DNA of 57,612 nt, the filler included, from Sphacelaria rigidula (Eukaryota): NCBI GenBank assembly GCA_964200075.2. It is 8 parts of 8 records of this genome, joined end to end, with 100 filler letters (N's around TTAATTAATTAA, not from the genome) between each part and the next. Parts side by side here need not be neighbours in the genome. Positions count along the whole stretch, not along the records: positions 21,645 to 28,758 come from CAXNAA020016418.1; 7 more parts are not named here. The stretch is one strand, 5' to 3'. Shown in pieces: positions 7,116 to 56,974 of this stretch. The position numbers and the translations under genes are program-made. Under the pieces are notes generated by a model that searched no databases, was not told where the DNA came from, and was given only the letters and a program-made list of their open reading frames with translations. The first letter of the stretch is position 1, and each line of letters begins with the position of its first letter.

Positions 7116-7215
7116 NNNNNNNNNNNNNNNNNNNNNNNNNNNNNNNNNNNNNNNNNNNNTTAATTAATTAANNNNNNNNNNNNNNNNNNNNNNNNNNNNN
7201 NNNNNNNNNNNNNNN
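7116..7215. other. Artificial contig spacer N44-TTAATTAATTAA-N44 (also 14331-14430, 21545-21644, 28759-28858, 35973-36072, 43187-43286, 50400-50499)
   Basis: Seven identical 100-nt spacers carrying a six-frame-stop linker; the intervening segments have descending lengths of 7115 to 7113 bp. Confidence 0.98.
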
Positions 7216-14330: not shown

Positions 14331-14451
14331 NNNNNNNNNNNNNNNNNNNNNNNNNNNNNNNNNNNNNNNNNNNNTTAATTAATTAANNNNNNNNNNNNNN
14401 NNNNNNNNNNNNNNNNNNNNNNNNNNNNNNGTTGTATGGCCAATTTTTTCT

Positions 14452-21200: not shown

Positions 21201-23054
21201 AAAGTGACTCAGTTCGCTCCCCTCGCAAACATAATATGCTACGCACTTAACAATCATACTCCAAAAAGTTGTCACACGGTCCAAACTGATATCCATGTGC
21301 TACCGTACTCCTCATGCTAAAGGTGCTACTGTACTTTCTCTACAGCACCCCCAAGCTACGTTCTACTTAACGGTAGGAAACGAGCTTGATAATCGGTAAA
21401 CACCGACAATAAATCTGGGATGTCAACAAAGAATAATCATGCAAACGATAACCAAGCGGAATACTCGACGAGCACCAATCAACAGAGGATTCTATAAAAT
21501 GAGGTTCATCAATGAAATGAGGTTTGAGCTCAAAACAGTACTTTNNNNNNNNNNNNNNNNNNNNNNNNNNNNNNNNNNNNNNNNNNNNTTAATTAATTAA
21601 NNNNNNNNNNNNNNNNNNNNNNNNNNNNNNNNNNNNNNNNNNNNCCATATCGCTGCATTTGGGGTGGCGTGTTGCAACAGCACGCAACGGGACGGCACGA
21701 CGTCCGATTTGGTTTCAAATATGCATGTTATTTGGTTCTGGCGCACGACTGTTTCTTATTCACCCCAACGCGCCCCGTAAGTTCATCTCCAAGCCGAGAT
21801 TCGGGTGTGCAAAAATAGATTGTGTGAAATGGGTGTCATTCTGATGAAGAAATACAAAGTAACGGCGGCGAATTCGCAGGTTTTGCAAAAAACTACCGAT
21901 TTACCCCTTCGGGCCGAAGTGGCAGGGGCAGAAGGGGTTGTGGGGACGGCGGCGGGGGACACGGGGGAAATCGTACGGCGTACAGTTCTTCGGCAAAGTG
22001 TTCGTGACGGCTGGTGGTGCGACCCAGCTCAGTGGAGTACCGACTCTGCCTAGCATGCCCAGCTCTTCTGTTCAACTCTTGGTCTCCAACGCAACCGAGC
22101 GTAAAATTCAACAAGTTAAAAGTTGCCTTTTCTTTTCATTTCGTTCAAATTTGCGAAAATCTGGTCGCGCCCGTCCGTTTTGTTTCCCGCGGTGCAGTTA
22201 ATCATGCTTCAAAGAGTTTCGGCGGCTATCGCCGCCAGGCTCAATGGATCGACAGCCAAGAGACATGGGCACCGGCGATACTCATGTATGTTGCGTCATG
22301 GTACATGGCACAGTACGGCAAAGCCGTAGCAGCAGCTAGCTCATGAGCTGAGCACGATGATTTTGTGTGAGACGCGCGTCCACCTCAAACAAAGAGGATC
22401 AGCATCCGTTGACTTAATGCCGCGTCAATGAAATTGTTTTCACCTCGTTTGGATGAACCCGGGTGGGACTTTTTCGCTTCGGTTTCCTTGACGTCTCTCT
22501 TTGTGAGTTGGTGTGATTTTGTTTGTTTTGTTTTGTTCCTTGTCTCGAGGATCAGCAGAAACGATGAGAACTTCCCCGAGGATTTGACTGGCCCCGCAAA
22601 CCAAAACCACACAGCTCAAGCCGTAGCTGCTCGTCAGCTGAGACAGCTGGGGATATATCAGTTTATGCTGGCTTTTTCGCCATTTCCCTCCTCGGCTCGG
22701 CATCATCACCGCCATAAACGTCGTGGCCCCAGACCGCGAGGGTAGTCAGTTGGGTCATGGATTTTTGTTTCCCCCGAAGTTGATACCGATTCCGTTTCAG
22801 ATAAAAACAACAGGTACCGGTATTTTCGGTGCCTCATGAAATACAAATCGCATGTACTGCTGAGTAGCAGCGGCAGACAAGAGATAGAAAAAATGAAGTG
22901 AAGTCGAGGCAATGCGATATGCATGCAAGATCAAAACGCGCTCGAGGCGTGCCAACGCCGCCTCAAGCATTCAGTGGAGAAGGGCAGCACGCTGCTGTTT
23001 CATACTGTCCTGGTTCTCAACTGATCATGATGCCGATACTAATTTTGAGTGAAA

Positions 23055-23840
23055 TCATGTCGATTCCAAAAATGGAAGGAGTTGCCTCGTTTCTAGCCAG
23101 AAGAGGAACATCGGTGTCCCGATGACAGAGGCCCATGCAAAGGCTTGACACATGACAAACAACGCAACACCATCAGAGGTGAACGCGGAGAACTCACTGC
23201 CTCCGCAAACCGAGAACACAGCTTGATTGAACGCGGGGATTCCATTGCCCACGCAAACCAAGAACACACGCGTTGTCGAGTTTTGTCCACCATTACGACA
23301 TAATTTTTCTCCACGTTTGGCCATGGTGTGAGGTAAAATCCTAGATCGTGTGACGGCGCTGAGATTCAAACCCACGACCCAACTGAGCTGCCGACTCAAC
23401 TTTACAATAGAAGCCGTGGTTTTTAGCGCCTCATGATGAAAAAATCGCATGTACAGGAGGGCAGCAGCAGCAGCAGCTACAACAACAGTCCGACAATCCA
23501 GCATCTTCACTACGCCTGCAGCTGAAGGGTAGCATCGAAGCACAGGCGTGTGGACATACACTCGTAAGCAGGGTGTGGGATTTGTATTCAGTAAAAGCTG
23601 TTGAGAATTCTATCATTCAGCCCAACCGATCTTTGAATTGGGGGGCAGGAGGATGAGTTATTTTCAACAATTACTGCTGCAAATCTCGCATCCCATCCGC
23701 TGATGACGGTGTAGAATGCGGGACATGCACAGCGGAGACTGTTCGCAATAAGTTTTCGTTTTGCCCAGTTTATGGATGAATTGGCGGGCAAAGTGAGGAT
23801 CTGTTTCGAGCAGCTTCTCTTGTTCGAATTTCAAATCTGT
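23055..23840 (-). pseudogene. Degenerate coding relic, weakly KDZ-transposase-like
   Basis: Fragments such as NSSINWAK...CACPAFYTV and FSVCGGSEFSAFTSDGVAL (cf. F.C..CG.......DG); heavily disrupted. Confidence 0.2.
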
Positions 23841-23932
23841 CAGAGTGTACAGGCTGGGCCGCCGAAGACGCGGACAGGGATGTGAACACGCGACTTTCCA
23901 GCTCAATTTTGGGTTGTTGTCAATAGAACTCG

Positions 23933-24075
23933 GACACGATGTACACGACGTATTTGTGGAGAATTCTTCACGATTTTGTTCCAAAATATTCGGTCGCCCA
24001 CAACTCACGGAGAAAACAAATATATGTAGGGGCCTGAAGGTGGAGTCTTCGCACATACATCGTGTACATCGTGTC
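23933..24075. repeat. Short inverted repeat / mini-MITE
   Basis: gacacgatgtacacgacgtat ... atacatcgtgtacatcgtgtc. Confidence 0.7.
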
Positions 24076-24214
24076 AGAATTTCGCAGAAAACGGCTCAAG
24101 ATTAAGCTTTGTAAGCCGGGTATACAGTTATATAGAGACCCGATTGCAGGTATGAGCACAGGTATATACCTTGGAGAGGCACGGATGTAGGCTCAATCGA
24201 AAAACACAACCTCA

Positions 24215-24515
24215 CACACGCGACCATTTGGCTACATCCCAAAATGCCTTCGGAGGGATGCGCGGCCCTCCAGGGGGAAAACAAGCAACCGGAGGCCTTA
24301 CATCCCTCTAGAGGAGACCAAACTCTACCGACCCGGAGGGCCGCGCACCCCTCCGGAGGAATTTGGGGGTATGCGCGGCCCTCCGGAAGCAAGAATAAGC
24401 GAAAAAATCTCCTCTGGACCGCCGCGCACCCCTCCAGAGGCGTTCAATTCCTCTGGAGGCTCGAAAAGTGTACCCACCTGGAGGAAGTGTGGAGGTAGCC
24501 AAATGGCCGCATGTG
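24215..24515. mobile_element. MITE with TIRs and internal CCCTCCGGAGG motif array
   Basis: cacacgcgaccatttggctac / gtagccaaatggccgcatgtg inverted termini; repeated ccgcgcacccctcc(g/a)gagg motifs in both orientations. Confidence 0.7.
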
Positions 24516-25533
24516 GATGACCTAAACATGTACCTCCCATAGATCAACGCATCCAAAAGGGATACAAAGTACCGCTGAGTGGAAACACGAAGCATGAGCA
24601 GCACTGCAGACCGGCAGAATGGATTACCCCAGACTCGAGTAGTGACTCGAGCGGGGACGGTTCATCTGCGCCTTCACCGGATCAAGTATTGTAGCATGGC
24701 ATCGACGTTGATGGTATGTGGACTCACAGCTTACAGCGCGTCGTCTCTTATAATCCGGTGGGTTGTGGAACAATGTTGTACTTTTGCGATTTCGTGGCTG
24801 GTGTCAGGGTCAAGCTAGGCTCTTCCGCCACCAACGGGCGATTGTCGCATCATCGATCGTTCGTTCACGCAACGGGTACAGTACTGGTCGTCACGCATAG
24901 AGAGCTAGGGACAGAACAGTAATAGCGGAGAGACTCGGTAACCATTTCCGGGGAGAAGGGGGTGTGGTCGTTTGTGGCGTCCGTGAACGGCAAATGAGCG
25001 GGAAAAGAGCCGAAGGTATGGGCGCCATAGTTGGAGCTGGCGCATAGACTCCCTTGCGCGCTATGTGCCGCATCATGTACAGCGTAGAGAGCAATGGCTT
25101 AGCACAGGTACGTTCTCGGCCGATTGGTGGCCCAGATAAGGTACGATTGAAAAATATTTCGCAGACTGGGTATCATACCTGGGCGAAATTTGGCCCACGA
25201 AAGGTAAGCGATTTTTGAAGGCGACACGTCCGTTTTGGCGTCGCCATGTCTCTCGAGTAACATGTTTTTTCCCGCGTTTTTTTCAAGGCCCGGGTACCAA
25301 TGCCCCCCCCAGATGACGTGCGTGAAACATTCGGAGCGAAAGCGGTCAAAATGACGTCTTTGGCTGTTTTCGCGTTACTGGCCATTTTTCGTACCTTTCT
25401 TGGGCACAAAACGAGAAGGTATACCTTTTCTAGGCCATTGCTTCTTGTACTATCAGGCATGCATCCACTCCGGGTTAGGTTGCTAGTGTCAGTGCAGTAC
25501 CGTGAGGTCTTGCATACTGTGTCCCCACCAAAA

Positions 25534-25680
25534 CAGCAGTATCGTATTTTGTCGAGTATCAGTATCGAGTATCGATACGTATCGGGCCATTTTCCGCGTA
25601 TCGAAAAAATATCGGTATAGACATCTTGAGGTCGATACGTTGAAAATATCGTACCGAACTTTTTTTCCGTTCACTGCTGT
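25534..25680. repeat. Small TATCG-rich MITE-like element
   Basis: acagcagt...actgctgt inverted ends; dense tatcg/cgata motifs. Confidence 0.45.
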
Positions 25681-26811
25681 CAGTAATACTCGATTGAATA
25701 TGGAGCATCACTTGAGTACGATTAGCAACCGTGACCGTCGGAAACTTCGTGACGTCACTTCATACACCATGTTGAATACATGCATAGGCGAACGATCGCC
25801 ATCAATGAGATGAGTGGCATTACGTCACGGGCTACAATGAGTATGAGCGAATGATGGTCATCAACTCACAAAAAAAACGTGGAGGTGAACGAATCTACCT
25901 GCCCCAGCTCACCTGCTCCCACCCATGGCAGTACATACTTGATACCGAGGAAGTGAAACGGTGATTGCACGGCATGAGGGCGAGGGGCGAGACAGCAGCC
26001 GAGCTGTGTAGGGATGCGATCCAATCTCATGGAACGTTTTTTGTGAAAAACAGATGTGTCTTGTTCGGCATCCGGTCAGATCAGGAGTGTAGTTGCACTT
26101 GTACAGGTCATTTCGATTCCGTCCTTTTTTGTTCGTGCTCGATATATTGTGATACTGAATTTTGTTCTGTGGTGCTGTCATCATCATGTGCCTCCTGACC
26201 GTTTCGTTGTCAGCTGTTTCCCCTTCTTCCTACTTGCAGGCGAAACTATTTTTTCCAAACCGCGCTGACGGGGACCTTTCGACGTGTTCCACGACACGTT
26301 GTCTTATAGCATGATAAGAGGCCCGTTGACCCTTACAGCAGTAGACCTAATGAGCAATGCTACGATGGGGGTTGCATTTTTTGTCTCTGGGTCTCGTTCC
26401 CGCAAGAGCCCAAATATCTGGGCTTACTGTGCAACCCAAATCTCCGGGACACGACTCGGAGATGGACACAGGGGCCTTTTCGTGAATCGGTATCATTTTC
26501 AGTCTTTTTCGAGTGAAAATGATGCCGGTTCTCAATATGATCCGTGCAACACCCCGAGAAACATTTTCGATCAAAAAGCGCAACCCTACCGTAGCATCAC
26601 TCTGATGAAAAGTTCGTACACAATGGTTGACAGGGATGACTACTCGATTTTAGAGTTGATACAATTCTGAAAAAAAATGACTTAGGGCAAGTGAGCGGTG
26701 GACCCAGCTCGTCCAGAACGTGTTTTCGTCGAAATCGGAGCCTGCCGCGACGATTCGAAGTCTACCAACGCACACTTTGCTCAGGGGAAGCTATGCACCT
26801 TCCTCGCCCGA

Positions 26812-28012
26812 GGACCTCGGTGGCCGCATTGCCCACAACCGCCAAGTGCGCACCAAGTCGAAGCAGCGGCAATTCAGTCGACAGCAGCTGCAGACCGAAA
26901 TGGCAAGGTGGCACGTGACCGAGAGGTTCCTACATAACCTCGCCGAGCAAAAATACTAACCAATCACCATCGCACCGGCGGCCGTGAAGGTGTTTACCGA
27001 AGCTATCCTCGAAGCAGCGCAGACAGTTCTCCCGGAAGAGGCACGGGTACCACGTATACCGGAATGGTGTGAAAACCCCGGCACGAGAGCAACAGTGGAA
27101 GCAGCGCTCGCCAAACGAGGGGAGGCACGCCAACTGATGGAGCATCACCGGACCCCAGCATCGTGGGAAGCACTCAGAGCGGCGTGTAAGAACGTGCGGA
27201 GAGCACTCGATGACGGCATCTTTGCACATCTGGAGAGGTATGTGGCAAGGCCAGAAGTTATCTACAAGGATCGCGACATGAGGGGCCTGTACAAACACCT
27301 CGAGAAAACGGTGGGTCTTGGTGGAAGGCAATCCGGGGGGCAGCAGGTCATAAAGAACGACAACGGCGTCCTACTGAGGAACAAACATGCCATCCTTAAA
27401 CGGTGGGCGAGATTTTCCCGCACCCTGCTCAACCCCAAATCGCCCACGCTAAACCCAGCCATCATCGAGGAGGTGAAGCAGCGACCGGCAGCGTCAACTA
27501 CCGGGGATTCAGTACCGCTTGGGGCAGTACCAACTCTAGAGGAAACCAGACGAGCAGTCTGGGGGATGCACAACTAGAAAGCACCAGGACACGACTTCAT
27601 TCCTGTGGAGCTACTCAAGATCGACGGCCGCGCCGAGCCCGTCGTTCTCGAACGCTTCCAAACCATTATCGTCGAGGTGTGGAACGGAGGGGAGGTCCCG
27701 CAGGAGTGGAAAGATGCAACCAAAAAGGTGCTGTACAAGAATTTGGACCGGTCCAACAGCAATAATTACAGTGGGAACTCTCTGGTATCGCACGCAGGGA
27801 AAGTGCTCCTGAAGATAGTGGCCGACCGCCTCAGCGAGTAGTGCGAAACGCACGGGATATTACCGGAGGAACAGCGCGGCTTCCGACCTGACCGATCCCT
27901 TGTCGACATGCTGTTCGTAGTGCGCCAACTCCAGGAGCTTGGACGGCGGCGGAGAATACCGCTGAACATGTGCTTCGTCGACCTCCAGAAGGCATATAAC
28001 TCGGTCGACGGA
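26812..28012 (+). mobile_element. Non-LTR retrotransposon (RTE-like LINE) ORF2 fragment: post-endonuclease linker and RT up to motif A
   Basis: One frame with three stops (26957, 27575, 27839): [73 protein letters not shown]. Confidence 0.92.
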
Positions 28013-28758
28013 GAACTAGCCTCAGGATTCCAACAGATCGAGATCGCAGAAAAAGACCGCCACAAGACGCCGTTCAGAGATGCGGACGGCCTACTCTTCG
28101 AGTTCACCAAGGCGGGTTTCGGACTGACAGTACTCCCGGCAGCATTTACTCGTAGGGTAAAATCAACGATAGACAACCTGACCGGTGTACACAGCTGGCT
28201 AGATGACATCCTCATAGCCAGCCCCACGTGGAATGAGCACTTGGCACTACTAACCATAATCTTGCAACGATTGTCGACTGCAGGGTTTTCGGTTAACTTT
28301 GCCAAGTGCAGCTTTGCAGCACCGTCTCGGGAATTTCTTGGCATGTTGCTCGATAGCACAGGGATACAACCGGCCCCGTCCAAACTTACCGCAGTCGCTA
28401 AGATGCCGCGTCCACGCACTGTTGAGGAACTCCGTTCGTTTCTCGGACTCACCGGGTATCTCAGACAATTGGCGAGAAGTACAGCATAATAGCCGCCCCG
28501 TTGACCAACATTCTTCGCAACAAAGAATTTTCCTCCCGTCGTGCACGGAAGTTGTCCATCCCGTGGGGTGATGACCAGGAAACAGCATTCCAGACACTCA
28601 AGTCTTCCCTCACATCACCAACGATCCTCGCTTTCCCCGACATGAATATCACGTTCGAATTGCAGATCAACGCCAGCACAGTGGGTGCGGGGACCACCCT
28701 CCTTCAGCCAGTGGGAAACGACACCCGCATCATAGCATTCGCGAGTCAACGGTATTCA
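28013..28758 (+). mobile_element. Ty3/gypsy LTR-retrotransposon pol fragment (RT core, thumb, start of RNase H)
   Basis: LASGFQQIEI...DRHKTPF, FGL...PAAF, WLDDILI (28196), KCSF, FLG, ELRSFLGLTGY; frameshift near 28470; then APLT...W...QETAFQ.LK..LTSPTILAFPD, NAS.VGAG..L.Q, IAFAS. Confidence 0.93.
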
Positions 28759-28858
28759 NNNNNNNNNNNNNNNNNNNNNNNNNNNNNNNNNNNNNNNNNN
28801 NNTTAATTAATTAANNNNNNNNNNNNNNNNNNNNNNNNNNNNNNNNNNNNNNNNNNNN

Positions 28859-28966: not shown

Positions 28967-29427
28967 AAAAATCCATGGGAGAACATGATTTGTTTTTCGT
29001 CAAACTTTCACCCGAACCCTGACCCTGACCCTAACCACAACCGGAGGCATACCGTGAACCTTCGAGCAAGGATGGTTGGTGTGATCTCTCGGGCACAGGG
29101 TGCGTTGGCAGAAGTCATATCAGCATCGTATGCGCTAATTCGAATCAAGACGCGCGTCCTGCACACGTTGTTCGGGCGCCCGGGACTGTCAGCCTTCCAA
29201 AAGATCCGAGTACGATGGTGTGCACGTGTGCACTGATACGGAATATCTTTTTTAACCATGGACTTTTGTCGTCGAGTTGGCGTTCCCATTTACCGCTTCA
29301 TCAACCCCACTCCGCCCCGCCCCGCCCACGAGACTCTGATGTGGGATCATGCTCTGTTGTGTCTATTATACTACTCTCGCTCGTACCCACCTGCCCCTTG
29401 TCCCGTCATGGCATGCTTGATGTTTTG

Positions 29428-30015: not shown

Positions 30016-30330
30016 CAAATGTACCCAAAGCACACACATACAGGAGACAGAAGAAGCCGACGGTAGCTGAATTATTGAGCGAATAACTGGTCGGTGTGTT
30101 GACTCATGAATTAAAACATGTTTTTTCCCCATCATTGTTGGTTGTTTGCTTATTTCTGACTATTTCGCCACTCATTTTTTTTTTTTACTTTATCGAAGTT
30201 TTTGGTTCTGGTTTTGTTCAGTGCATGTTCCTCGTTCCCCCACTCATTCATCCACAGAACGTACGAATAAATAATGTGTTGGTTTAATTTATTTTTTCGT
30301 TTTGATCTATATTTTTGTTGTATATTTAAG

Positions 30331-30520
30331 GTTGGGTGGAAGTTGCGGGTGTCCATTCTGGCCGACGCGGCGCGGGCGCTTGAGTTTTTGCACCGCAAGA
30401 GCCTCATCCATCGAGATATCAAGAGCCCCAACATTCTGCTGGACTCTCAGCATCGATGTAAAATCGCCGACTTTGGTATGGCCAGGCAGCTGGGCACCGA
30501 TATGACCGTCGTTGGCACAG
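30331..30520 (+). CDS. Protein kinase (TKL group, LISK-like), exon with subdomains VI-VIII
   Basis: AG/GT-bounded 190-nt exon: VGWKLRVSILADAARALEFLHRKSLIHRDIKSPNILLD...KIADFGMARQLGTDMTVVGT; phase-1 end. Confidence 0.95.
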
Positions 30521-30524
30521 GTGC

Positions 30525-30533
30525 GTCTCTGCC

Positions 30534-30568
<35 letters not shown>

Positions 30569-30646
30569 GAGATTGGCATCATCGATGTTACCAGCATGTG
30601 CCCAATTTTCCATGTCTCTGTCTCTGTCTCTGTCTCTGTCTCTCTC
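30525..30646. repeat. (TCTG)n and (TCTCTG)n microsatellites
   Basis: Seen directly at the start of the intron. Confidence 0.9.
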
Positions 30647-30730
30647 ATCGACACGGTTGCGGTGGACTATTTATATTTAATATCTAAGGCGCAGGCGGTT
30701 GAAGCCACGTTGAAGTCCTGTATAGATTTC

Positions 30731-35828: not shown

Positions 35829-36072
35829 GTGAGAAGTCAGTCCCTGCCGGGCAACACAACAGAGCTTTTAGTATAAAGAGACGCCACGCACGGGGGTATA
35901 GTATCTGAGTATATGGGACCTCTCTTCGATTTTGTTGCTTTTATTTTTATTGTTCAGGAAATGGGGGGGGGGNNNNNNNNNNNNNNNNNNNNNNNNNNNN
36001 NNNNNNNNNNNNNNNNTTAATTAATTAANNNNNNNNNNNNNNNNNNNNNNNNNNNNNNNNNNNNNNNNNNNN

Positions 36073-36400: not shown

Positions 36401-36710
36401 AACACATCATCATTGGCCTCGCATTCCTACACCGCCGGAACGGAGCACACCGAATTTTCGCCGGGCCACGCTCTACGGAGGAGGGGGGAGTACAAACCTT
36501 CGGTGCGTATACATATTGAAACTTTGTAGATGGAAGACCGATGTCACAAGAGTAACGACATCAAGTCCTGTCTTGCTAATGACATTTAAGCGGCATTTAT
36601 TTCGTATCTCAATTCGAGACTCCGAACATCCAGTATCAACGTGCTGAACAAACAAAAACGAGATTGATCTCATCATTAGGAAAGCTGAATGCACGCTTTC
36701 ACAGCATCAC

Positions 36711-38417
36711 CTCTAATTCCCACTCCCTAGAAGCACGCTTCATGGCCACCTCCAGCACCTTTCGCCTTTCCTCCTCCTCCTCCAGTCGGCCCCGCATCTC
36801 CTCGACCATCTTCTCCCCGCGCCGCGCCGTCCTCACGGTAGCCTCCCTCACCGCAAGCTCCGCGGCCGCCGCCGACCTCCCAAGCTCTTCCTCCATCTTT
36901 CCTTCAAGCCTATTGCGTTCATCCGCAACCGCGACCGTTACAGCTTCCGCTGTTTGCGCGGCGACCCCCGCCGCAATTCCCTTACACTCCTCCTTGAATT
37001 TCCCCTCCAACCTATCTCGCTCTTCGGCAACTGCCGCTCGAACAGCCGCCGCTGTGTCCTCGGCGTGCCGTCGGGCCATCTCGAGGGTATCACGCGAACT
37101 CCGCTCGTTGTGTTCAACTTCGAGCGCTTCCCGCTCCTCCTGGGCTCGCCGCTCTGCTTCTCTCCTCTGTGCCTCGACGGCCGCCTGCACGGCTGCCGCT
37201 GTTTCGTCCGCGTGTCGGCGGGCCACATCTGCATCTCGCTCCTCTTGGTCACTTACTCGCTTCTTCTCCCTTTCTTTCCTTTGCCTCTCGATCTCTTCCC
37301 TCTCCAGTTTGAACTCCTCGAGGAGAGAGCCCCGTGCCGCAGCTACAGCGGCCGCAACAGCTTCATCCCTGTCGTTTTCGGCGCTTTTCAAGGCCAATGC
37401 TACCGCAGCTCTTTTCCCTTTCTCAGATTCCTCTGCCAACTTACCCAGCAATTGGCGATGCTCGGTATCCTTCTTCTCCAGATCCTCCGCAAGCTCTGCG
37501 CGCACACCGGCTAACGCTCGGTCTTTTTCAACCGCCGTCGCATCTTCCCACCGCTGTCGCTCCGCCACAAACCCATCCATCACCTCTTGAATCTCTTGAC
37601 GACGCAAGTCATCTGCCCTACGATTCGCCTCCGCTACTGCAGCTCTTTTCCCGTCCTCAAATTCCTCTGCCAAGCTACCCAGTTGTCGGCGATGTTCGCT
37701 GCTTCGCCTCTCCAAGTCCTCCGCAAGCTCTGCGCGCAACCCGGTTAACGCTCGATCTTTTTCAACCGCCGCCGCGTTTAGCAGTCGCTGTCGCTCCTCC
37801 GCAAATCCATCCATCACCTTTTGAATCTCTTGCCGGCGCTGCTCATCTGCCCTCCGATCTGCCTCCGCTACCGTAACCCTTTTGACCTCCTCACGCTCCT
37901 TCTTGGCGCTCTCTGACACCGCCTGGACGGCCGCTTTCTTATCTTGCTCGTATTCCTCAGCCATCAATTCCAGCTCTCGCCGATGCTCCTTGTCACGCTT
38001 CTCCAATCCTGCAATCGCCATCGCTTTTTCCCTATCAACGGCAGCCGCCGCCGTTTCTGCCGCCGAGACCGCCGCCGAGGCCGCTGCGTCCGCTTTCGCC
38101 AGCACGGCCGCTTGTTCTACCGCTTGCTCTCTAAGTCTCTCAATAACTCTGTGAGATTCTGCTGTTTCCGCGCGAGCCGCCGTCGTCTCACTTCTTGCTT
38201 CTTCCAATGACCCCTCGACTACCCGCAGCTGGCCGTTGAGACGCGCTGAGTTTTGACGGGCGTCGGATAGGAGCATGTCTTTTTCGGCGGCTGTTGCACC
38301 GACCGCGTCTCGGAGGGCAGCGCGATGACAGGCCTCGAGTTCTTCGGATTGATGGGCGAGCGCCTCCTGGAGTTGAGCGTTCGTGGTGGCTTGGAGTTCG
38401 GCCATTTTGGTTTCTGC
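36711..38417 (-). CDS. Large coiled-coil protein, exon 5 of those visible (569 codons; may instead end at the stop at 36699)
   Basis: E/A/R/K-rich helical sequence; acceptor ttgcacag|GCAGAA; possible donor GAG|gtgatg; internal 78-aa (234-nt) duplication. Confidence 0.88.
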
Positions 38418-38591
38418 CTGTGCAAGCATCATCAAGTGTAATAAAGCAACGAAGACAGCGCCAGCGAAGCACAGGGAATTTCGTGTGCGCTTGATGAGAT
38501 ACCTTCCCAAAGGTACGGTAACGCGCACTTTGTCAAACGTTTCGAGTTTCACCGTCCTTGCGCGCTGCATCCACAGTACCGTATATCTCAC

Positions 38592-38723
38592 CTCGGCCGT
38601 GACAGTTTGTCGTACTTCTCTCTCCCGCTCCCTCAACACTCTCTGGTGCTCAGCCTCAAGCTTACCCGGCATGACCTCCAGCTGTTCCCTGAGATGCTTC
38701 GCCTTCTCCTCGAGAGTGCGAGC
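38592..38723 (-). CDS. Coiled-coil protein exon 4 (44 codons)
   Basis: aag|ARTLEEKAKHLREQLEVMPGKLEAEHQRVLREREREVRQTVTAE|gtgag; phase 0. Confidence 0.82.
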
Positions 38724-39307
38724 CTTATGCAGTCGAAATTTGTCAAAAATATGGAAAGAAATACAGAGACCAGTTCTCGCGTTTGAAGGAGAAATGTTCA
38801 CTCCGTGTACCAAAGTACCTCGACGTTGGGATGTTGATATGGTTTGGGGGACACCGAAAGTCGGTGGGCAACCTTCGCGCAGATCGACGCCGAGAACCCA
38901 AACCAACAAGTTATAGATTTCGATGCGGCATCCCGCGCGGTGTGCATGTATCGTTGCAGACAGATGGCCACAACACGAATAGCTCACTAACTTGCTAAGG
39001 GGCGTGGGCACGGTGTTACCTGCAACCATACTTCATCGACCGAGGCTTAATGCGGCCACTTCAGCACGCATGCCTTGCGGGTGTAACCCTAGTGCATCTT
39101 TTTCGACGTCGCCAAGGAGGTGGCCACACAAACACATCCAACGACGGAATTGTTCGCCTTAGGCGTATAGAGACAGAATACCTGATCGGCGGGCACCTGC
39201 AGAGCCGCTTTAGCGCTCACATGTTGCTTGCAACTGTCACATGAAAACGGGCATGTACAACCCATCGTGTTTCATGCTACAATACACCCTTCTCGCCACA
39301 TGCATAC

Positions 39308-43137: not shown

Positions 43138-43636
43138 CTGGGCGAGGTGGGATGCAAAGGTTGGGAGGGGGGGGGGGCGTACTCATNNNNNNNNNNNNNN
43201 NNNNNNNNNNNNNNNNNNNNNNNNNNNNNNTTAATTAATTAANNNNNNNNNNNNNNNNNNNNNNNNNNNNNNNNNNNNNNNNNNNNATCGTCATCGACAC
43301 GCGTGTACTCCGCATTCGTTGGGTGCACCTAGCCAATGCTGCTTAACTACTGCGGACATTTGGGGGGGAAGATGGCTTCGCTCGGTCGTAAGTGTTTCGC
43401 GTTATTCCTGCAAAAAATAAATACCACTTCAACCTCATTTTTGAGATGTACCCCATTTTTCAGGATCCGCTGTTACTTCCGAAACCTAGGAGCCCCTCGG
43501 ATTGGAAAAGTGGGTAAGGCGGCTTATCTCGGCGTGGCGATGTATATTGTCCAAGACATGTGGTTGTAATACTTCTTCTACTTTTTGTTCGTGTATCAAA
43601 AACGGCCTGAAATATCCCAAAACTAAAATGTATTTA

Positions 43637-50238: not shown

Positions 50239-51014
50239 GTAAATCATGATAGTTTTGTCCACTAACCGTTGTGCTGCAACATGGCGTCTTCTAACGTGAT
50301 TTTTCGATGAAAAGAGTAGATCAGCCAAAGCAAACATTGAATGGAAGAGGGGGGAGGAGGGGGGAGGGGTGTACTCATGATCATGCATGCCATAGTCATN
50401 NNNNNNNNNNNNNNNNNNNNNNNNNNNNNNNNNNNNNNNNNNNTTAATTAATTAANNNNNNNNNNNNNNNNNNNNNNNNNNNNNNNNNNNNNNNNNNNNT
50501 CCGGCGACAACCCGGCGTGCTCCGTCCCGGCATTGTAGGGATGCGAGGTCAATGGTCTGATGACTACGGCATGCATGATCATGAGTACACCCTGACTCCT
50601 GCTGTACTATTTCTATTGCTACTATCATGCCATGAATAAATACTCTCAATAAAATGGGGGATAACGCTCATCCTTATGCAGCTTCTTGTAAAATATCAAA
50701 TGTTTTTTAAACAAGCCAGCGCGGAACCTTGCGCTTCGCTCCGGTCCCGCGCTTTCCGCACGGTTTCCGCACTTTTGTCGAGAAAAAGGTGTGAACCTCG
50801 CCAAGCCCTAGTGGGAGAACAGACTTATTCCGACATGCATAATGTTTTATATGGGGAAAAAATGTGAATAATTTGAAAAGACACTGCGGGTATGAACGAT
50901 GAGTAGATGTGGATATAAAAAACCGGAACTGAGAAACCTTGGAGTACAACGTAGTATTATGGATGTACGACTAGAGGGTACATCACCATATACTTCATGT
51001 CGTCACGTTCCGAC

Positions 51015-51690: not shown

Positions 51691-51717
51691 TGTAGCATCA
51701 TAGCACTTGTCGTACAC

Positions 51718-52560
51718 TCATCATAATTTTCACCGTTCTCCATGTCTTTCCTCTGGTCCGAGTTTCCCACATCTTTCCGCACAGCCCATTTCTCCATACT
51801 GTGCCATAGGTCTTCTGTACGTCTAGAAGGGAAAGGTACGTTGTTAGGCCCGAGTCTTTCGTACCTTGAATAATTTTGACCAATGTGTACGCATGATCTA
51901 CGCAGATACGGTTTGGTCTAAACCCTCCTTGCTCCTCACTGATTTTTTCTTCTTTCTCCAGCATCGTTCCCACTCTATCGTTCAGAATCTTGCACAATGT
52001 TTCACGGCTCGGACGAATCATCCCCGAAACGAATCGCCAGATCCACGATTTTTCAGACATGATAGCTCAACAAACAGAAAAAAAGTTTACCAGTGGTCAA
52101 AAAGATCTCCACGCAATTTTTGCGCCATTCCACGTGCCTGGGCTGCGCGTACCTGGGTTGCAACGCTGAAAACAAAGCCTAAGAATTGATTCGCACGGTA
52201 CGAATCAATCACACTAAAATAAAGTAATTTTCAGACAAAACATTAATTCGACCGACCCGTGCAATGTTTCCCCTACGGTGCTCAGTAGCGTTATCCCTCT
52301 ATAATTCCCTGGGTCAGCCCTGTCTCCTTTCTTGAAAAGGTTTAAAACTACTCCAATTCGCCACCACTTGGGTGTGGATTCGTTTTCCCAGATCCAACCA
52401 TACAACATAATCATCATGGTGATCATTCCTTCTTTCCCGTGCTTCATAAACCCACGAACTATTTCGTCTGCCCCTGCTGCCTTCCTATTCTTGAGTTTAG
52501 CTACACACTCCTCTACTCCGTCTCTTGTGAACACTCTCTGCGATTCTTTTGAATCACTGT
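51718..52560 (-). mobile_element. LINE reverse-transcriptase fragment interrupted by a MITE
   Basis: KLKNRKAAGADEI, LFKKGDRADPGNYRGITLLSTVGETL | CKILNDR, ISEEQGGFRPNR.CVDH, LDVQKTYGTVWRNGL; the frame is restored by removing 52003-52261 and one TSD. Confidence 0.9.
52003..52261 (+). mobile_element. hAT-like MITE, 16-bp TIRs, perfect 8-bp TSD CAATGTTT
   Basis: CACGGCTCGGACGAAT...ATTCGACCGACCCGTG; CAATGTTT at 51995-52002 and 52262-52269. Confidence 0.93.
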
Positions 52561-53435
52561 GTTCCGGTGTTGATGCCTCTACATTTGCCTCTGCCCACGA
52601 ACCTCTTGTGGACGGGGGGGGGAGGGGGCAAAAGCCGGGATGCGATCTCGGGTACTCGATTTGTTTTGTGGATTCCAGGACGTTTTATGACCCTATGCTG
52701 TCGTGCTGTAATACTTGGAAGTAGCGGTGACACACACAGCTCGTTGAGAGAGAATATACACGTTGGTTATTTCATCTGGCAGCAATGCGAATAATCTCCG
52801 CTGAACAGCAAAACAAGTTGGGACATGAAATCAGCGCACCTTCCTCTGATGAATCGGCGTTTAAGCCATAGGCCGAGTATACCCGAGCAGATAACGCGCA
52901 CACTTGCAGGTTTGCTCTGGTCATTTTGATTCTCCATCATGCCTCAACCAAACGATGTTTTGACAGTTGTATTTTGTCAACGTTTACACCAAGTAATTGT
53001 TTTTTTCGGCACGTGGAACGACCTCTGATAAGTGAACGTTGTGGGGAGACTGTGCTCCCACGCCAGATTGGCTACCTTGAGGGTTGTGCTCCTGCTCTAA
53101 CTTTAAGTGCCTCGGTTCGTGGATGTGTAGCAGTAGTGTGGAGCATACACAGGTGGATACTTCTCGGGACAATCAGTCTCTCCTGGGCACCAGACAGCTA
53201 GCGCGGTGTTGGTCGTGGGAAATGACCGTCGTGGATATTGTCTAGGGGACCAGAAATACGGAACCCCAGGACCGTGCGCTCCATGTTGGTGTAATTTCTT
53301 CCGCTCCACGTGCGACGGATGAATGGCTTGCATTACATTATGTCATGGTTTGAATTTGTGACCAGCTGTCGTTTGTAGACCATCGTTTCATCCCCGTAAA
53401 CGACTGCGATGAAACCAACGAACTCCCGCATGCAG

Positions 53436-54869
53436 GTGGCTGCCGCTATGTCACTGGTGAAGGCTACCCTTGACGCGGAAAAGACTCAAGAAGCACAGAC
53501 TAGAAAACAGCAGGCTCGCGAACGACGACTCGCCCAACAACAACAACAACAACAAATACAACAACAAATACAACCGGAGGACAAGCCACCTGCAGACGAA
53601 GCCGGTACAAAAATACCGTGCGGTGGTAGCAGCTCCGACGGCACAGGTCCTGGTCAGAGAGACAACACTGCGAACTCTCCAGATCCTGGGCGCATCGCGG
53701 CATCATCCCCGGCATCGGCGTCGGAACATTCACCAACAACCCACGGCCGAGGTGACGTGCGAGAGTTTTCTGTGTCGGCGGTGCAACAATCGTCCCTCCA
53801 GCCCACCGATCGCTCTTCCCCCGGCGCCGTTGCCGCTGGCTCCTTCCTGAGCCCGTCGGCGGTATCATCATTTGCCAGCACCCCGCCGGGAACACACGAT
53901 ACAAGGGCAGTGGTTGATGGTGGAGGAGCTTTGCTGTCCACGAAGGCGGCGATCGAGTCCCACGATCTTCTCGAGGGCTTGCTTCTTGCGGATGCCGCCG
54001 TCGCGGCAACGGCGGTGGCGGGTAATCGGGACGTGGCGGCAGCCGGCGTTTTTGCTGCCGACGAGGGAGCGAAGCGACAACATGATAAGCAGAAGCAGGC
54101 GCAGTTGTCACCGCAGCAGCAGCAGCAGGACAAGAAGAAGAAGAAAAAGAAGAAGAAAAAGCAGCAGCACGGAAACGGACTCGGCGCGGCGGCCTCTCGT
54201 ACAACCCAGACGACCGCCATCCCAAGCGCATTCCCTAGCCCCCTCGCGTGCTCTTCTGAAGACTCGGCCACCGCCACCTTTTCCTCCGTCAGCCCCCGCC
54301 TAGCAGCAACCACTACAACCAGCACGACGCGTTCGCCACTGCGGCCGCCGCCTACCCCACCCGGTCCATCACCTGCCGACGTAGAGGCCGAGCGCTTGCT
54401 CAAGATGCTCGTCGCGGCCGAGACACGCTCCTCGTCGGCGACGGCGGCGGTGACGGCGGGCAATTCCAGCGTTAAGAGCAGGGCAACAAGAAGGCTTTCT
54501 CCACGTACTACCGCATCGACGGTCGAGCACAGGAATGGCTTCCCTTCGGGCGCCGCTGCCAACGCCGGGGCTTCAGCTTCGTCTGCTGTCTCACCCGTCC
54601 CCTTTGTTTTAGACGGGGGTGGGCGCCGCGGAGCCGCCGGCGGTGCCAAGACGAAAATGTTGGACTCGGGTGGTGGCGTCGCAAGCGGGGTTGGCGGCGG
54701 CGCGGGGGCAAGAGGTGGCGGTGGTGCGGCTCCATTGTGTTCCACCAACGCACGTGGCGGGCCCACCGGATCGGTGCTGAACTCGACGTCTTTGGGAGTC
54801 CGTGCTGGGGTGGGTGGAGGCGGAGCAGAATATTTCACGTCTAGCAGCGGCATTCGCGTCAGGCTTTGA
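53436..54869 (+). CDS. Probable terminal exon of an unknown protein; low complexity (poly-Q, poly-K, S/A/G/P-rich)
   Basis: gcatgcag|GTG acceptor; 477 codons to TGA; GC-rich coding-like composition; followed by GT-rich UTR-like sequence. Confidence 0.75.
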   Translation: MAAAMSLVKATLDAEKTQEAQTRKQQARERRLAQQQQQQQIQQQIQPEDKPPADEAGTKIPCGGSSSDGTGPGQRDNTANSPDPGRIAASSPASASEHSPTTHGRGDVREFSVSAVQQSSLQPTDRSSPGAVAAGSFLSPSAVSSFASTPPGTHDTRAVVDGGGALLSTKAAIESHDLLEGLLLADAAVAATAVAGNRDVAAAGVFAADEGAKRQHDKQKQAQLSPQQQQQDKKKKKKKKKKQQHGNGLGAAASRTTQTTAIPSAFPSPLACSSEDSATATFSSVSPRLAATTTTSTTRSPLRPPPTPPGPSPADVEAERLLKMLVAAETRSSSATAAVTAGNSSVKSRATRRLSPRTTASTVEHRNGFPSGAAANAGASASSAVSPVPFVLDGGGRRGAAGGAKTKMLDSGGGVASGVGGGAGARGGGGAAPLCSTNARGGPTGSVLNSTSLGVRAGVGGGGAEYFTSSSGIRVRL

Positions 54870-54879
54870 GGGGATATTT

Positions 54880-54960
54880 GGGCGTGTTTGTGTGTTGGTG
54901 TGTGTATGTAGGTATGTGTGTATATATGTGGATATGGGTACGTGTATGTGTGTGTGTACT
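54880..54960. repeat. Degenerate (GT/AT)n microsatellite
   Basis: Seen directly. Confidence 0.8.
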
Positions 54961-56974
54961 CCGTGCGCGCGGCTCCGAAGTGATGAAGTCGATGTGTCGG
55001 TACGGCCATGGTATGCGGTCAGGATGGCGCGATGGACTCACATTGTTTCGGGAAATATGTTCGTATGTTGTTGGGAATTTGTCCCTGATGGATGAGAACA
55101 AAAATGCAAAAAGGAGGGGGGGGTGTAGGGTGCGAGTGGACGTGAATCGCGTGTGTGCGTGTGTGTTGCGGGGGGGCGAGGGGGGGGGGGGGGGGCAGAC
55201 GGATTTTATGCGTTCGGTGTTTCCTTGTTGATGTACGCGGAGTGGATTTCCTGCTTTGTGCATGGTTCCCTTTTCTCTTGTGATTGCACCGAAGTTCCTG
55301 GACGAGGAGGACTTGAGCGGTGGCCCAAGGAGGGAGGGGGCGGAGTGTGTAGGGTCCAGAGGGGGAAGTAGACAGAATGCCCGGACTTTGTTTATGCCAT
55401 TGCCGAGGGAAGCGGAAACATGAAGCATGCTCTATCCTCTCTAATTTGTCTCCGTCGTTGCAGAACGTGGTGTTGCGAATGGCGGGAGAAAGAAATTTTG
55501 TCTTGTGTGTAGCATGTCTAGCTGTTGATTGGTTACAACGGCCGCGGCCGTGAAGTCATGAGCGTTTGCGGGCGACACGAGTAGTAGCACGATGAGGATG
55601 CTTTCCTATCCCATCCGTGACATTTTATCTTTGGAGTGCATGCGTGGTGGTTTGAGCCGTTCGCAGCGCTGGTATCGGGGAGGGCTCGTGTCGTGAAACT
55701 GTGCTGTTTTATATATGTATATGCGCGTACATGGATACTAGTACTCCTGGTGCTAGGGCGGGGGGTGGTTACATCAAGCTTGGAAGATGGTGTACGAGTA
55801 CCGTATCGTGCGCGCTTGGACTCGACGTGAAAGTCGTTACACATTCGAAGTGATGCGTGAGAGCGCTGTTTCCTCGAGTGTAGCCATTTCTCGGAAGACA
55901 GACGACGTTGTGAGAACATGCTTGTGAGGGAATTGCCATGGGTAGGGTTAGCGTGTATGTGCACAAAAGCTGGAGAAAATAGTTTGTTCATTCATCCATC
56001 TTTCTTTCAAAGCTCGGGGGAAAAAGACCACTGTGGTGTGCTGTACAACACAGCCCTGCATTACATTACTCGTATAGGCACGATCAGAGGTGTTGAGCTA
56101 CCGCTGGAGTTGGTTTTCCACTTGAAGCTTTGAAGGGCGCCGGGAGATCACCACAACAATCGCCCTCGCGTCATTCCGTGAGCGATGATCCACTGTTCTC
56201 AACAAATGGGAAATTCCCATGAGCTATCGATGAGATCAGGCGTACATTGCAGTCATGGACAAGGCGTAACCGCACTTCATCTATCCACGAGGCCATCCGA
56301 AACCCTATAAAAGTCAAGGGAAAGGAGGAACGTGACATCTGGTCTAGCCTGCAGATAGCGCCTTCCTGATGGTTGAAAGGCTGAAACGTGCCCCGGTGAA
56401 AAATTGCCGAGCGGTGCTCCCCATAAGCCGGAATTTTTTATACCCTTTCCAGTGCCCATATGATTTTGTTGAAAACTCCCCGGGTGTGCATGACTCGAAA
56501 CATCGTGGAATGTATGTGTGCGTGTACGTGTACAAGCTGAGCCGGCGAAGAGCAGGTGGATATCGCCGAGCGCACCTCAATGTTATCGACACGAGGCTTG
56601 CAATTTCGACGGGTGATTTGCACGATACTTAACGACACAGTATGACCGACCCCCATTTTCTTCTTTTTTTCCCGCCGAGATACAGCCAACCAACCCAAAT
56701 GAAATGAGATACGGCCAACCCGACCTGGTTGGTTTTATCTTGGATGGGGAAAAAAGGATGGGTGAGTAGCATCGCAGCATTCAGATCCGAACTTGGAAAT
56801 TTCAGCTACAGTAGAGGGCGGTCCAACTACTCATTTTGTGGCATTTTGTGATTTTTTCGTAATTGGCGACTTTCTTGGGCTCTTTTCGCTTGCCACCGCT
56901 TATCACATTGGGGATCTGAAGATGTTTGCTTCCGCTCCACATTCGAAGAAAAAAGAAACATATGTACTCAATAG

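Follow-up and report, generated by a model that had tools for sequence, protein, structure and literature searches.

The window analysed here is a stretch of 57,612 nucleotides (57.6 kb) of Sphacelaria rigidula DNA. It is a chain of contigs of about 7114 bp, in which N-runs and the string TTAATTAATTAA recur every 7,213–7,215 bases, and the contigs are apparently unplaced and ordered by size. The junction between a LINE and a gypsy element that concerns us sits in one of them, a 7114-bp unplaced contig at 21645..28758 that is flanked on both sides by N44-TTAATTAATTAA-N44 linkers, as given by the N-run coordinates. Because the contigs were chained artificially, features that cross or end at a linker are a matter of the assembly. 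Position 28758, which the initial annotation had given as the end of the feature, is merely the end of the contig. The features considered are as follows.

7116-7215, 14331-14430, 21545-21644, 28759-28858, 35973-36072, 43187-43286 and 50400-50499: the 100-base N44-TTAATTAATTAA-N44 linkers.
21645..28758, no strand assigned: the contig with the LINE-gypsy junction, delimited by N-run and linker coordinates.
26469..26813, no strand assigned: one or more unrelated, very high-copy repeats adjoining the LINE 5' truncation point, with the top summed contig depth and loose contig ends at 26602, 26691 and 26734.
26814..28018, plus strand: a LINE ORF2 fragment, truncated at its 5' and 3' ends, from just past the endonuclease to reverse transcriptase (RT) motif A and a D-G-E-L tail, with stops at 26957, 27575 and 27839; assigned from identity to the LINE protein P0002 and from Pfam RVT_1.
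28015..28018, plus strand: the breakpoint interval, placed from protein comparisons, in which GAA (E) is the last LINE-specific codon and the Leu codon CTA at 28016-28018 fits both parents.
28016..28486, plus strand: a Ty3/gypsy RT from the second residue of motif A to the end of the RT domain, assigned from identity to P0021 and P0034 and from RVT_1 positions 76-203.
28426..28758, plus strand: the start of the gypsy RNase H in a shifted frame (RT_RNaseH_2, E 2.1e-15), cut by the contig end, with an N-run from 28759.
28467..28468, plus strand: a 1-base deletion that is private to the window copy and shifts the gypsy frame; family contigs in four runs have an extra base behind 28467 or 28468.

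A single reading frame extends from 26681 to 28489, interrupted only by TAA at 26957 and by TAG at 27575 and 27839. Its translation reads ...MCFVDLQKAYNSVD-GEL-ASGFQQIEIAEKDRHKT...SWLDDILIAS...FLGLTGYLRQ, and around the junction ...PLNMCFVDLQKAYNSVD GEL ASGFQQIEIAEKDRHKTPF.... The sequence therefore reads as it had been described at the outset, with one frame passing from LINE ORF2 into a Ty3/gypsy RT and then, after a 1-base frameshift, into RNase H. Pfam RVT_1 covers the 215-aa ORF at 27842-28486 in a single stretch (residues 6-168, profile 36-203 of 205, E 3.2e-16), and the RT_RNaseH_2 match in the shifted frame takes in profile positions 1-65 of 100. At the frameshift (28467/28468), the contigs of family copies have one extra base in four of four public runs. 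The three in-frame stops and the frameshift confirm that the copy is dead. The read-through translation (P0001, with X at the stops) served as the query against 5.8 billion proteins.

The LINE half is 70% identical to P0002 over 427 aa and 65–77% identical to many other relatives. Scanned alone, the piece 27578-28018 matches RVT_1 profile positions 13-83 through its residues 68-144 (E 3.3e-6), with a score of 27.4 bits that falls slightly below the 29.6-bit cut-off because the piece is a fragment. Its relative P0099 combines Exo_endo_phos (E 9.7e-7) with RVT_1, which identifies the family as an APE-type non-LTR element. The apurinic-type endonuclease that lies upstream of the RT is absent from the window copy, which is truncated at about 26814. 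Similarity to LINEs starts at this point, the contigs of other copies diverge upstream of 26813/26816, and in P0002 the end of the endonuclease precedes the position matching ~26814; the divergence and the position of the endonuclease together indicate an ordinary 5' truncation of a LINE. At the other side the LINE sequence ends at 28018 inside the RT, with neither a LINE 3' end (tail or poly(A)) nor a target-site duplication, and the early observation that the LINE lacks both its ends stands. Among LINEs, the excerpted text of an Ectocarpus catalogue names the clades RTE, RTE-X and CRE plus some unknown (PMC12477816), with which the initial label 'RTE-like' would be compatible.

The gypsy half is 69% identical to P0021 over 171 aa and 71% identical to P0034 over 156 aa. 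The piece 28016-28486, scanned alone, matches RVT_1 positions 76-203 from its residue 2 (E 8.3e-12), and the relative P0125 consists of RVT_1, RT_RNaseH_2 and RT_RNaseH. The window copy likewise has an RT followed by an RNase H of the RT_RNaseH_2 type, the arrangement of Ty3/gypsy elements (Metaviridae). Relatives and Pfam matches thus establish the parentage proposed for the two halves: one is the RT of a non-LTR (LINE) element, the other that of a Ty3/gypsy element, and they share orientation and frame. Upstream there is no trace of an LTR, gag or protease, the gypsy sequence beginning at 28016, and the contig stops at 28758, before any integrase. The catalytic Asp of the gypsy part is gone, and a Glu stands in its place. 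Motif C reads W-L-D-D (28196-28207) in this brown-alga gypsy family, where it is common to P0021, P0034 and P0053; most RTs have Y-x-D-D in motif C.

The nearest named proteins come from Ectocarpus sp. and Pylaiella littoralis, as expected of a host that is a brown alga or closely related to one, and this is a likeness to the RTE/RTE-X LINEs and Ty3/gypsy elements that the excerpted survey describes for Ectocarpus (PMC12477816). The make-up of the relatives is a further likeness, with APE endonuclease and RT on the LINE side and RT and RNase H on the gypsy side. The window copy differs from the Ectocarpus families in that it reaches only about 70% protein identity to any relative found.

Over the stretch covered by public-run contigs, summed contig depth peaks in the repeat at 26469-26813, immediately to the left of the LINE. 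The idea that the segment 26690-26811 might be gypsy pol from further upstream had been raised; when 26200-26830 was compared by blastx with 383 LINE and gypsy proteins, a single chance match (E 0.23) was the only result, and we abandon this idea. A second gypsy fragment upstream, considered on the strength of a 27-nt direct repeat (26305-26331 versus 28480-28506, 78%), was rejected, as blastx gave it no support. An Rfam scan of the contig matched no family. A 36-nt imperfect inverted repeat is found within the high-copy repeat at 26469-26546. The repeat might be a non-autonomous LINE-dependent element, a kind that is described as the most abundant in Ectocarpus in the excerpt of the survey (PMC12477816).

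Several other features were seen elsewhere in the window. On another contig, 51701-52393 (minus strand) holds an unrelated RT fragment (RVT_1 E 3.8e-7 for 51701-52066) with ~31% identity to the LINE part described here. An exon-like ORF at 30271-30567 (plus strand) encodes a protein kinase catalytic-loop region (PK_Tyr_Ser-Thr, E 9.4e-16; Pkinase, E 2.4e-15), and downstream of it, at ~30510-30660, short-period simple repeats appear in the translations of several frames. A 777-aa open frame at 36702-39032 (minus strand) is G+C-rich with a strong GC skew and matches no Pfam family at E 0.01, and 53400-55018 contains long open frames on both strands; the open frames of these two regions may be genes specific to the lineage or may be artefacts of base composition. 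At 29017-29040, close to where the next contig begins, CCCTGA/CCCTAA-like units (ccctgaccctgaccctaacc) resemble degenerate telomere-type repeats.

The breakpoint was located by reading the motifs of the two parents against the window. In all 28 of the LINE relatives in which the motif is present with sufficient flanking sequence, it reads F(V/I)DLQKAYDSVD-R-x-(L/P)-(L/P)-W, the LINE copy P0097 reads D-G-E-L-L-W, and LINE relatives match through G-E-L before going on LWKVLARAG. Most LINE-type HSPs to P0001 end at the Leu of G-E-L (74 of 104) or at the Asp three residues before it (23 of 104). GGA GAA CTA, which had been taken for a three-codon linker, is accordingly the LINE's own D-R/G-E-L tail, as seen in the 28 relatives and in P0097. 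Close gypsy relatives read YFTQ(I/M)-D-L-A-S-G-F-H-Q and match the window from (D)LASGF. With D-R/G-E-L as the parental motif on the LINE side and D-L-A-S-G-F on the gypsy side, the break falls at ~28015-28018, and the Leu codon is common to both. Judged from the proteins, the microhomology at the junction would amount to 0–4 bases, possibly to an imperfect 6–7. One gypsy-family contig (run X5, record 21) aligns leftward to 28012, which hints that gypsy copies resemble the window a few bases to the left of the Leu codon; it was given no weight.

We took the register of the join from the Pfam RVT_1 coordinates. The LINE piece reaches position 83 (plus the three residues G-E-L) and the gypsy piece restarts at 76, so that 8–11 positions are present twice, and with coordinates that overlap in this way the join is not a precise homologous exchange. 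The mosaic consists of LINE D-L-Q-K-A-Y-N-S-V followed by gypsy (D→E)-L-A-S-G-F-Q-Q-I, and it keeps the LINE motif A while adding most of the gypsy motif A. We take these two nine-residue strings to be equivalent in RT motif A, which agrees with the Pfam coordinates. When 28 LINE and 62 gypsy RT segments were compared by hhalign, the YxDD region alone was aligned (probability 1.3%). The proposal that the join lies at the homologous motif-A position is thus right as to its closeness to motif A and wrong as to exact register, from which it is off by the residues present twice.

The initial annotation had raised the prospect of a multi-copy hybrid element, that is, a propagating retroelement with a LINE/gypsy mosaic RT whose one copy in the window would be dead. 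In favour of such an element, the frame is sufficiently colinear to give the one-stretch RVT_1 match. The searches for a second copy of the junction point the other way. None of 383 related proteins from two large protein libraries has both halves in one protein at ≥50% identity, and where alignments run across the junction (49 cases), the partner is a LINE copy that stays LINE (P0353, P0099) or a distant gypsy RT at 25–42% identity, whose general RT homology extends into the LINE part. A junction-centred query returned eight matches among proteins shorter than 118 aa, all of them LINE-only, and none of the eight covers more than 51% of the junction region at ≥76% identity. The sole match with full (99%) coverage, P0390, is a LINE continuing as LINE (...SVDREPPWKVLARAG). 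Overall, the hybrid junction occurs in 0 of 391 related proteins, a count from protein searches that cover predicted genes only, in collections poor in brown algae, and that are not equal to a genome BLASTN. An exhaustive comparison with 1.84 billion cluster representatives gave 54,568 matches; the best 150 are all of gypsy type and include no chimera, and in none of these 150 does the best stretch begin before query residue 23. The window contains no second copy of the junction, and an IMG/VR scan with the 215-aa ORF gave no relative. In JGI metagenome contigs the degenerate pattern N-S-V-D-[R/G/S]-E-L-A-S-G-F found two matches, which were rejected because they lie on unrelated contigs and have no RT similarity beyond 15 residues.

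The anatomy of the copy also speaks against a propagating hybrid, since motif A is partly duplicated, the gypsy catalytic Asp has become Glu, and the LINE part is without endonuclease and 5' end. The fall in contig depth across the join, given below, weighs in the same direction, at most to the extent that nearly all LINE copies do not run into gypsy. We consider this the least likely of the explanations and very improbable in itself, and we infer that the junction is single-copy.

Six public runs contain 0.08–0.25 of the sampled words of 27400-28700, and we aligned the contigs of four public runs (X1, X4, X5 and X6; Logan) to the contig region. Short family-member contigs, mostly 85–95% alike, cover each bin in their thousands; by identity, those of run X4 number 249 at 99% and above, 859 at 95–99%, 1830 at 90–95% and 1069 under 90%. 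Summed contig depth, which is not copy number, is ~10- to 50-fold lower in the gypsy bins (28138-28758) than in the last bins that are purely LINE (27822-27979). This drop is in line with published copy counts for Ectocarpus: in the excerpted text of a curated survey these are 16,418 RTE-X, 5,010 RTE and 4,821 CRE LINE copies, and 4,221 gypsy copies in 32 families (PMC12477816). The interval 28010-28020 is bridged by none of the 32 contig pieces listed; a further 17,410 pieces and 1,729 loose ends fall outside this listing and may or may not include bridging ones.

These data bear on an assembly or cloning chimera, in which the halves would stem from different loci. A read or clone of chimeric origin would have linked them, or else they would have been mis-joined within a short contig that ends in repeats and could not be placed. 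Some 740 bp separate the junction from the end of its short, unplaced contig, and this position raised the weight we give to this explanation. It is also favoured by the high copy number of the repeats on both sides in the four public runs and by the lack of a bridging contig among the 32 pieces. On the other hand, the window copy has diverged from its family, most aligned contigs being less than 95% alike, so that reads from the locus should be distinguishable and should assemble without ambiguity. The protein contexts indicate that the parents share a few bases at most at the join, which makes a mis-join in a k-mer graph unlikely and leaves a chimeric read or clone as the possible route. Taking both sides together, we regard a chimera as somewhat unlikely but serious.

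A different origin would lie in an RNA template switch, in which an RT that had begun at the 3' end of a gypsy transcript switched at motif A to a LINE RNA and continued to 26814, the product being a single insertion. The halves are co-oriented and the LINE part shows an ordinary 5' truncation, at ~26814, both of which suit such an event, and the common Leu codon could provide a few bases of microhomology. Chimeras that LINEs produce by template switching are moreover documented in fungi and mammals, the excerpted sources describing U6/L1 and Alu/L1 chimeric retrocopies in mammals and WEIRD/MGL 'MINE' elements in Magnaporthe (PMC2104539, PMC13174262). The window copy resembles these retrocopies, as described there, in the direct fusion of two co-oriented retro-transcripts with a 5'-truncated LINE part. 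It departs from them in its order. In the documented cases the LINE is the primary template and forms the 3' part of a composite that carries poly(A) and target-site duplications, according to the same excerpts (PMC2104539, PMC13174262), whereas in the window copy the LINE is the 5' component. The gypsy RNA would then have been the primed template, and the jump would have had to run from the interior of one element to the interior of the other. No recurrent junction was found for the window copy, which is a further difference. The 3' end and any target-site duplications lie past the contig end at 28758.

We therefore consider a template switch distinctly unlikely. Still less probable, and in our view barely credible, is its fuller form, in which a gypsy/LINE RNA template switch at motif A, using microhomology at the Asp/Glu-Leu codons, produced a mosaic RT that was inserted and perhaps copied in brown algae. 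If true, such a mosaic would be a natural inter-class RT recombinant.

On balance, we favour the view that the junction is a non-functional, single-copy scar of illegitimate recombination or deletion between two old, decayed retrotransposon fragments. The DNA-level mechanism and the single-copy status are the conjectural parts of this reading. The starting elements would be a 5'-truncated LINE insertion of the APE-type family and a Ty3/gypsy element in the same orientation. A DNA-level event would have joined the LINE at ~28015-28018 to the gypsy RT, most likely by illegitimate recombination, that is, by a deletion or by end joining of a double-strand break, with 0–4 bases of microhomology at the common Leu codon. 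The event would have deleted the 3' half of the LINE and, on the gypsy side, everything from the LTR through gag and protease to the N-terminal part of the RT. The preserved reading frame and the closeness of the join to the homologous motif-A position (to within ~10 residues) would be coincidental, and would give an RT that looks colinear. Neither element shows at the join the end of its own insertion, and the join was therefore not made by one element inserting into the other. Of the origins proposed initially, the simplest is a deletion that followed adjacent or nested insertion and happened to leave the two parts in frame, and template switching finds no support. The age of the scar is apparent in the ~70% protein identity of both halves to their nearest relatives, in the three stops and in the private 1-base deletion, and there is no sign that the product ever worked or was copied. 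Poly(A), an LTR or a target-site duplication at the downstream end would tell deletion and retrotransposition apart, but the contig stops short of that end.

We also considered how surprising such a coincidence would be. As a rough estimate, about 1 in 2,000 random same-orientation joins between a LINE and a gypsy element might keep the frame and miss the register by no more than 12 residues, assuming a 3.5-kb LINE, an 840-nt RT core, a 6-kb gypsy element and an offset of ±12 residues. The repeat load of Ectocarpus, as given in the excerpted survey (PMC12477816), leads one to expect many contacts between LINE and gypsy copies. The coincidence is rare per join, and it is unremarkable where LINE copies number in the tens of thousands and many windows are scanned. 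Mixed-domain predicted proteins are common in the related genomes, and in two of the 120 listed matches a LINE RT is combined with a foreign Pfam domain (the integrase core rve and RVT_1 in P0020; PF06966 and RVT_1 in P0028).

Fragmented or nested transposon mosaics that arise by illegitimate recombination and deletion are known mainly for plant LTR retrotransposons. The window copy is like these mosaics in that unrelated elements are joined internal to internal, both without transposition ends at the junction, with little or no homology at the breakpoint, in an old and decayed copy that is seen once. It differs in that the join is in frame, lies no more than ~10 residues from the equivalent RT motif and mimics a continuous RT. 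The junction thus looks like an ordinary dead scar between two transposons, one of many in the repeat-rich, unplaced portion of a brown-alga assembly, and not like a new hybrid element. Transposon domains can be brought together in frame by chance, and such mosaics can pass for fused genes. Only a junction that proved to be present in several copies, or that was framed by the traces of one retrotransposition event, would represent recombination between the RTs of a LINE and an LTR element, and would bear on the origin of new retroelement classes.
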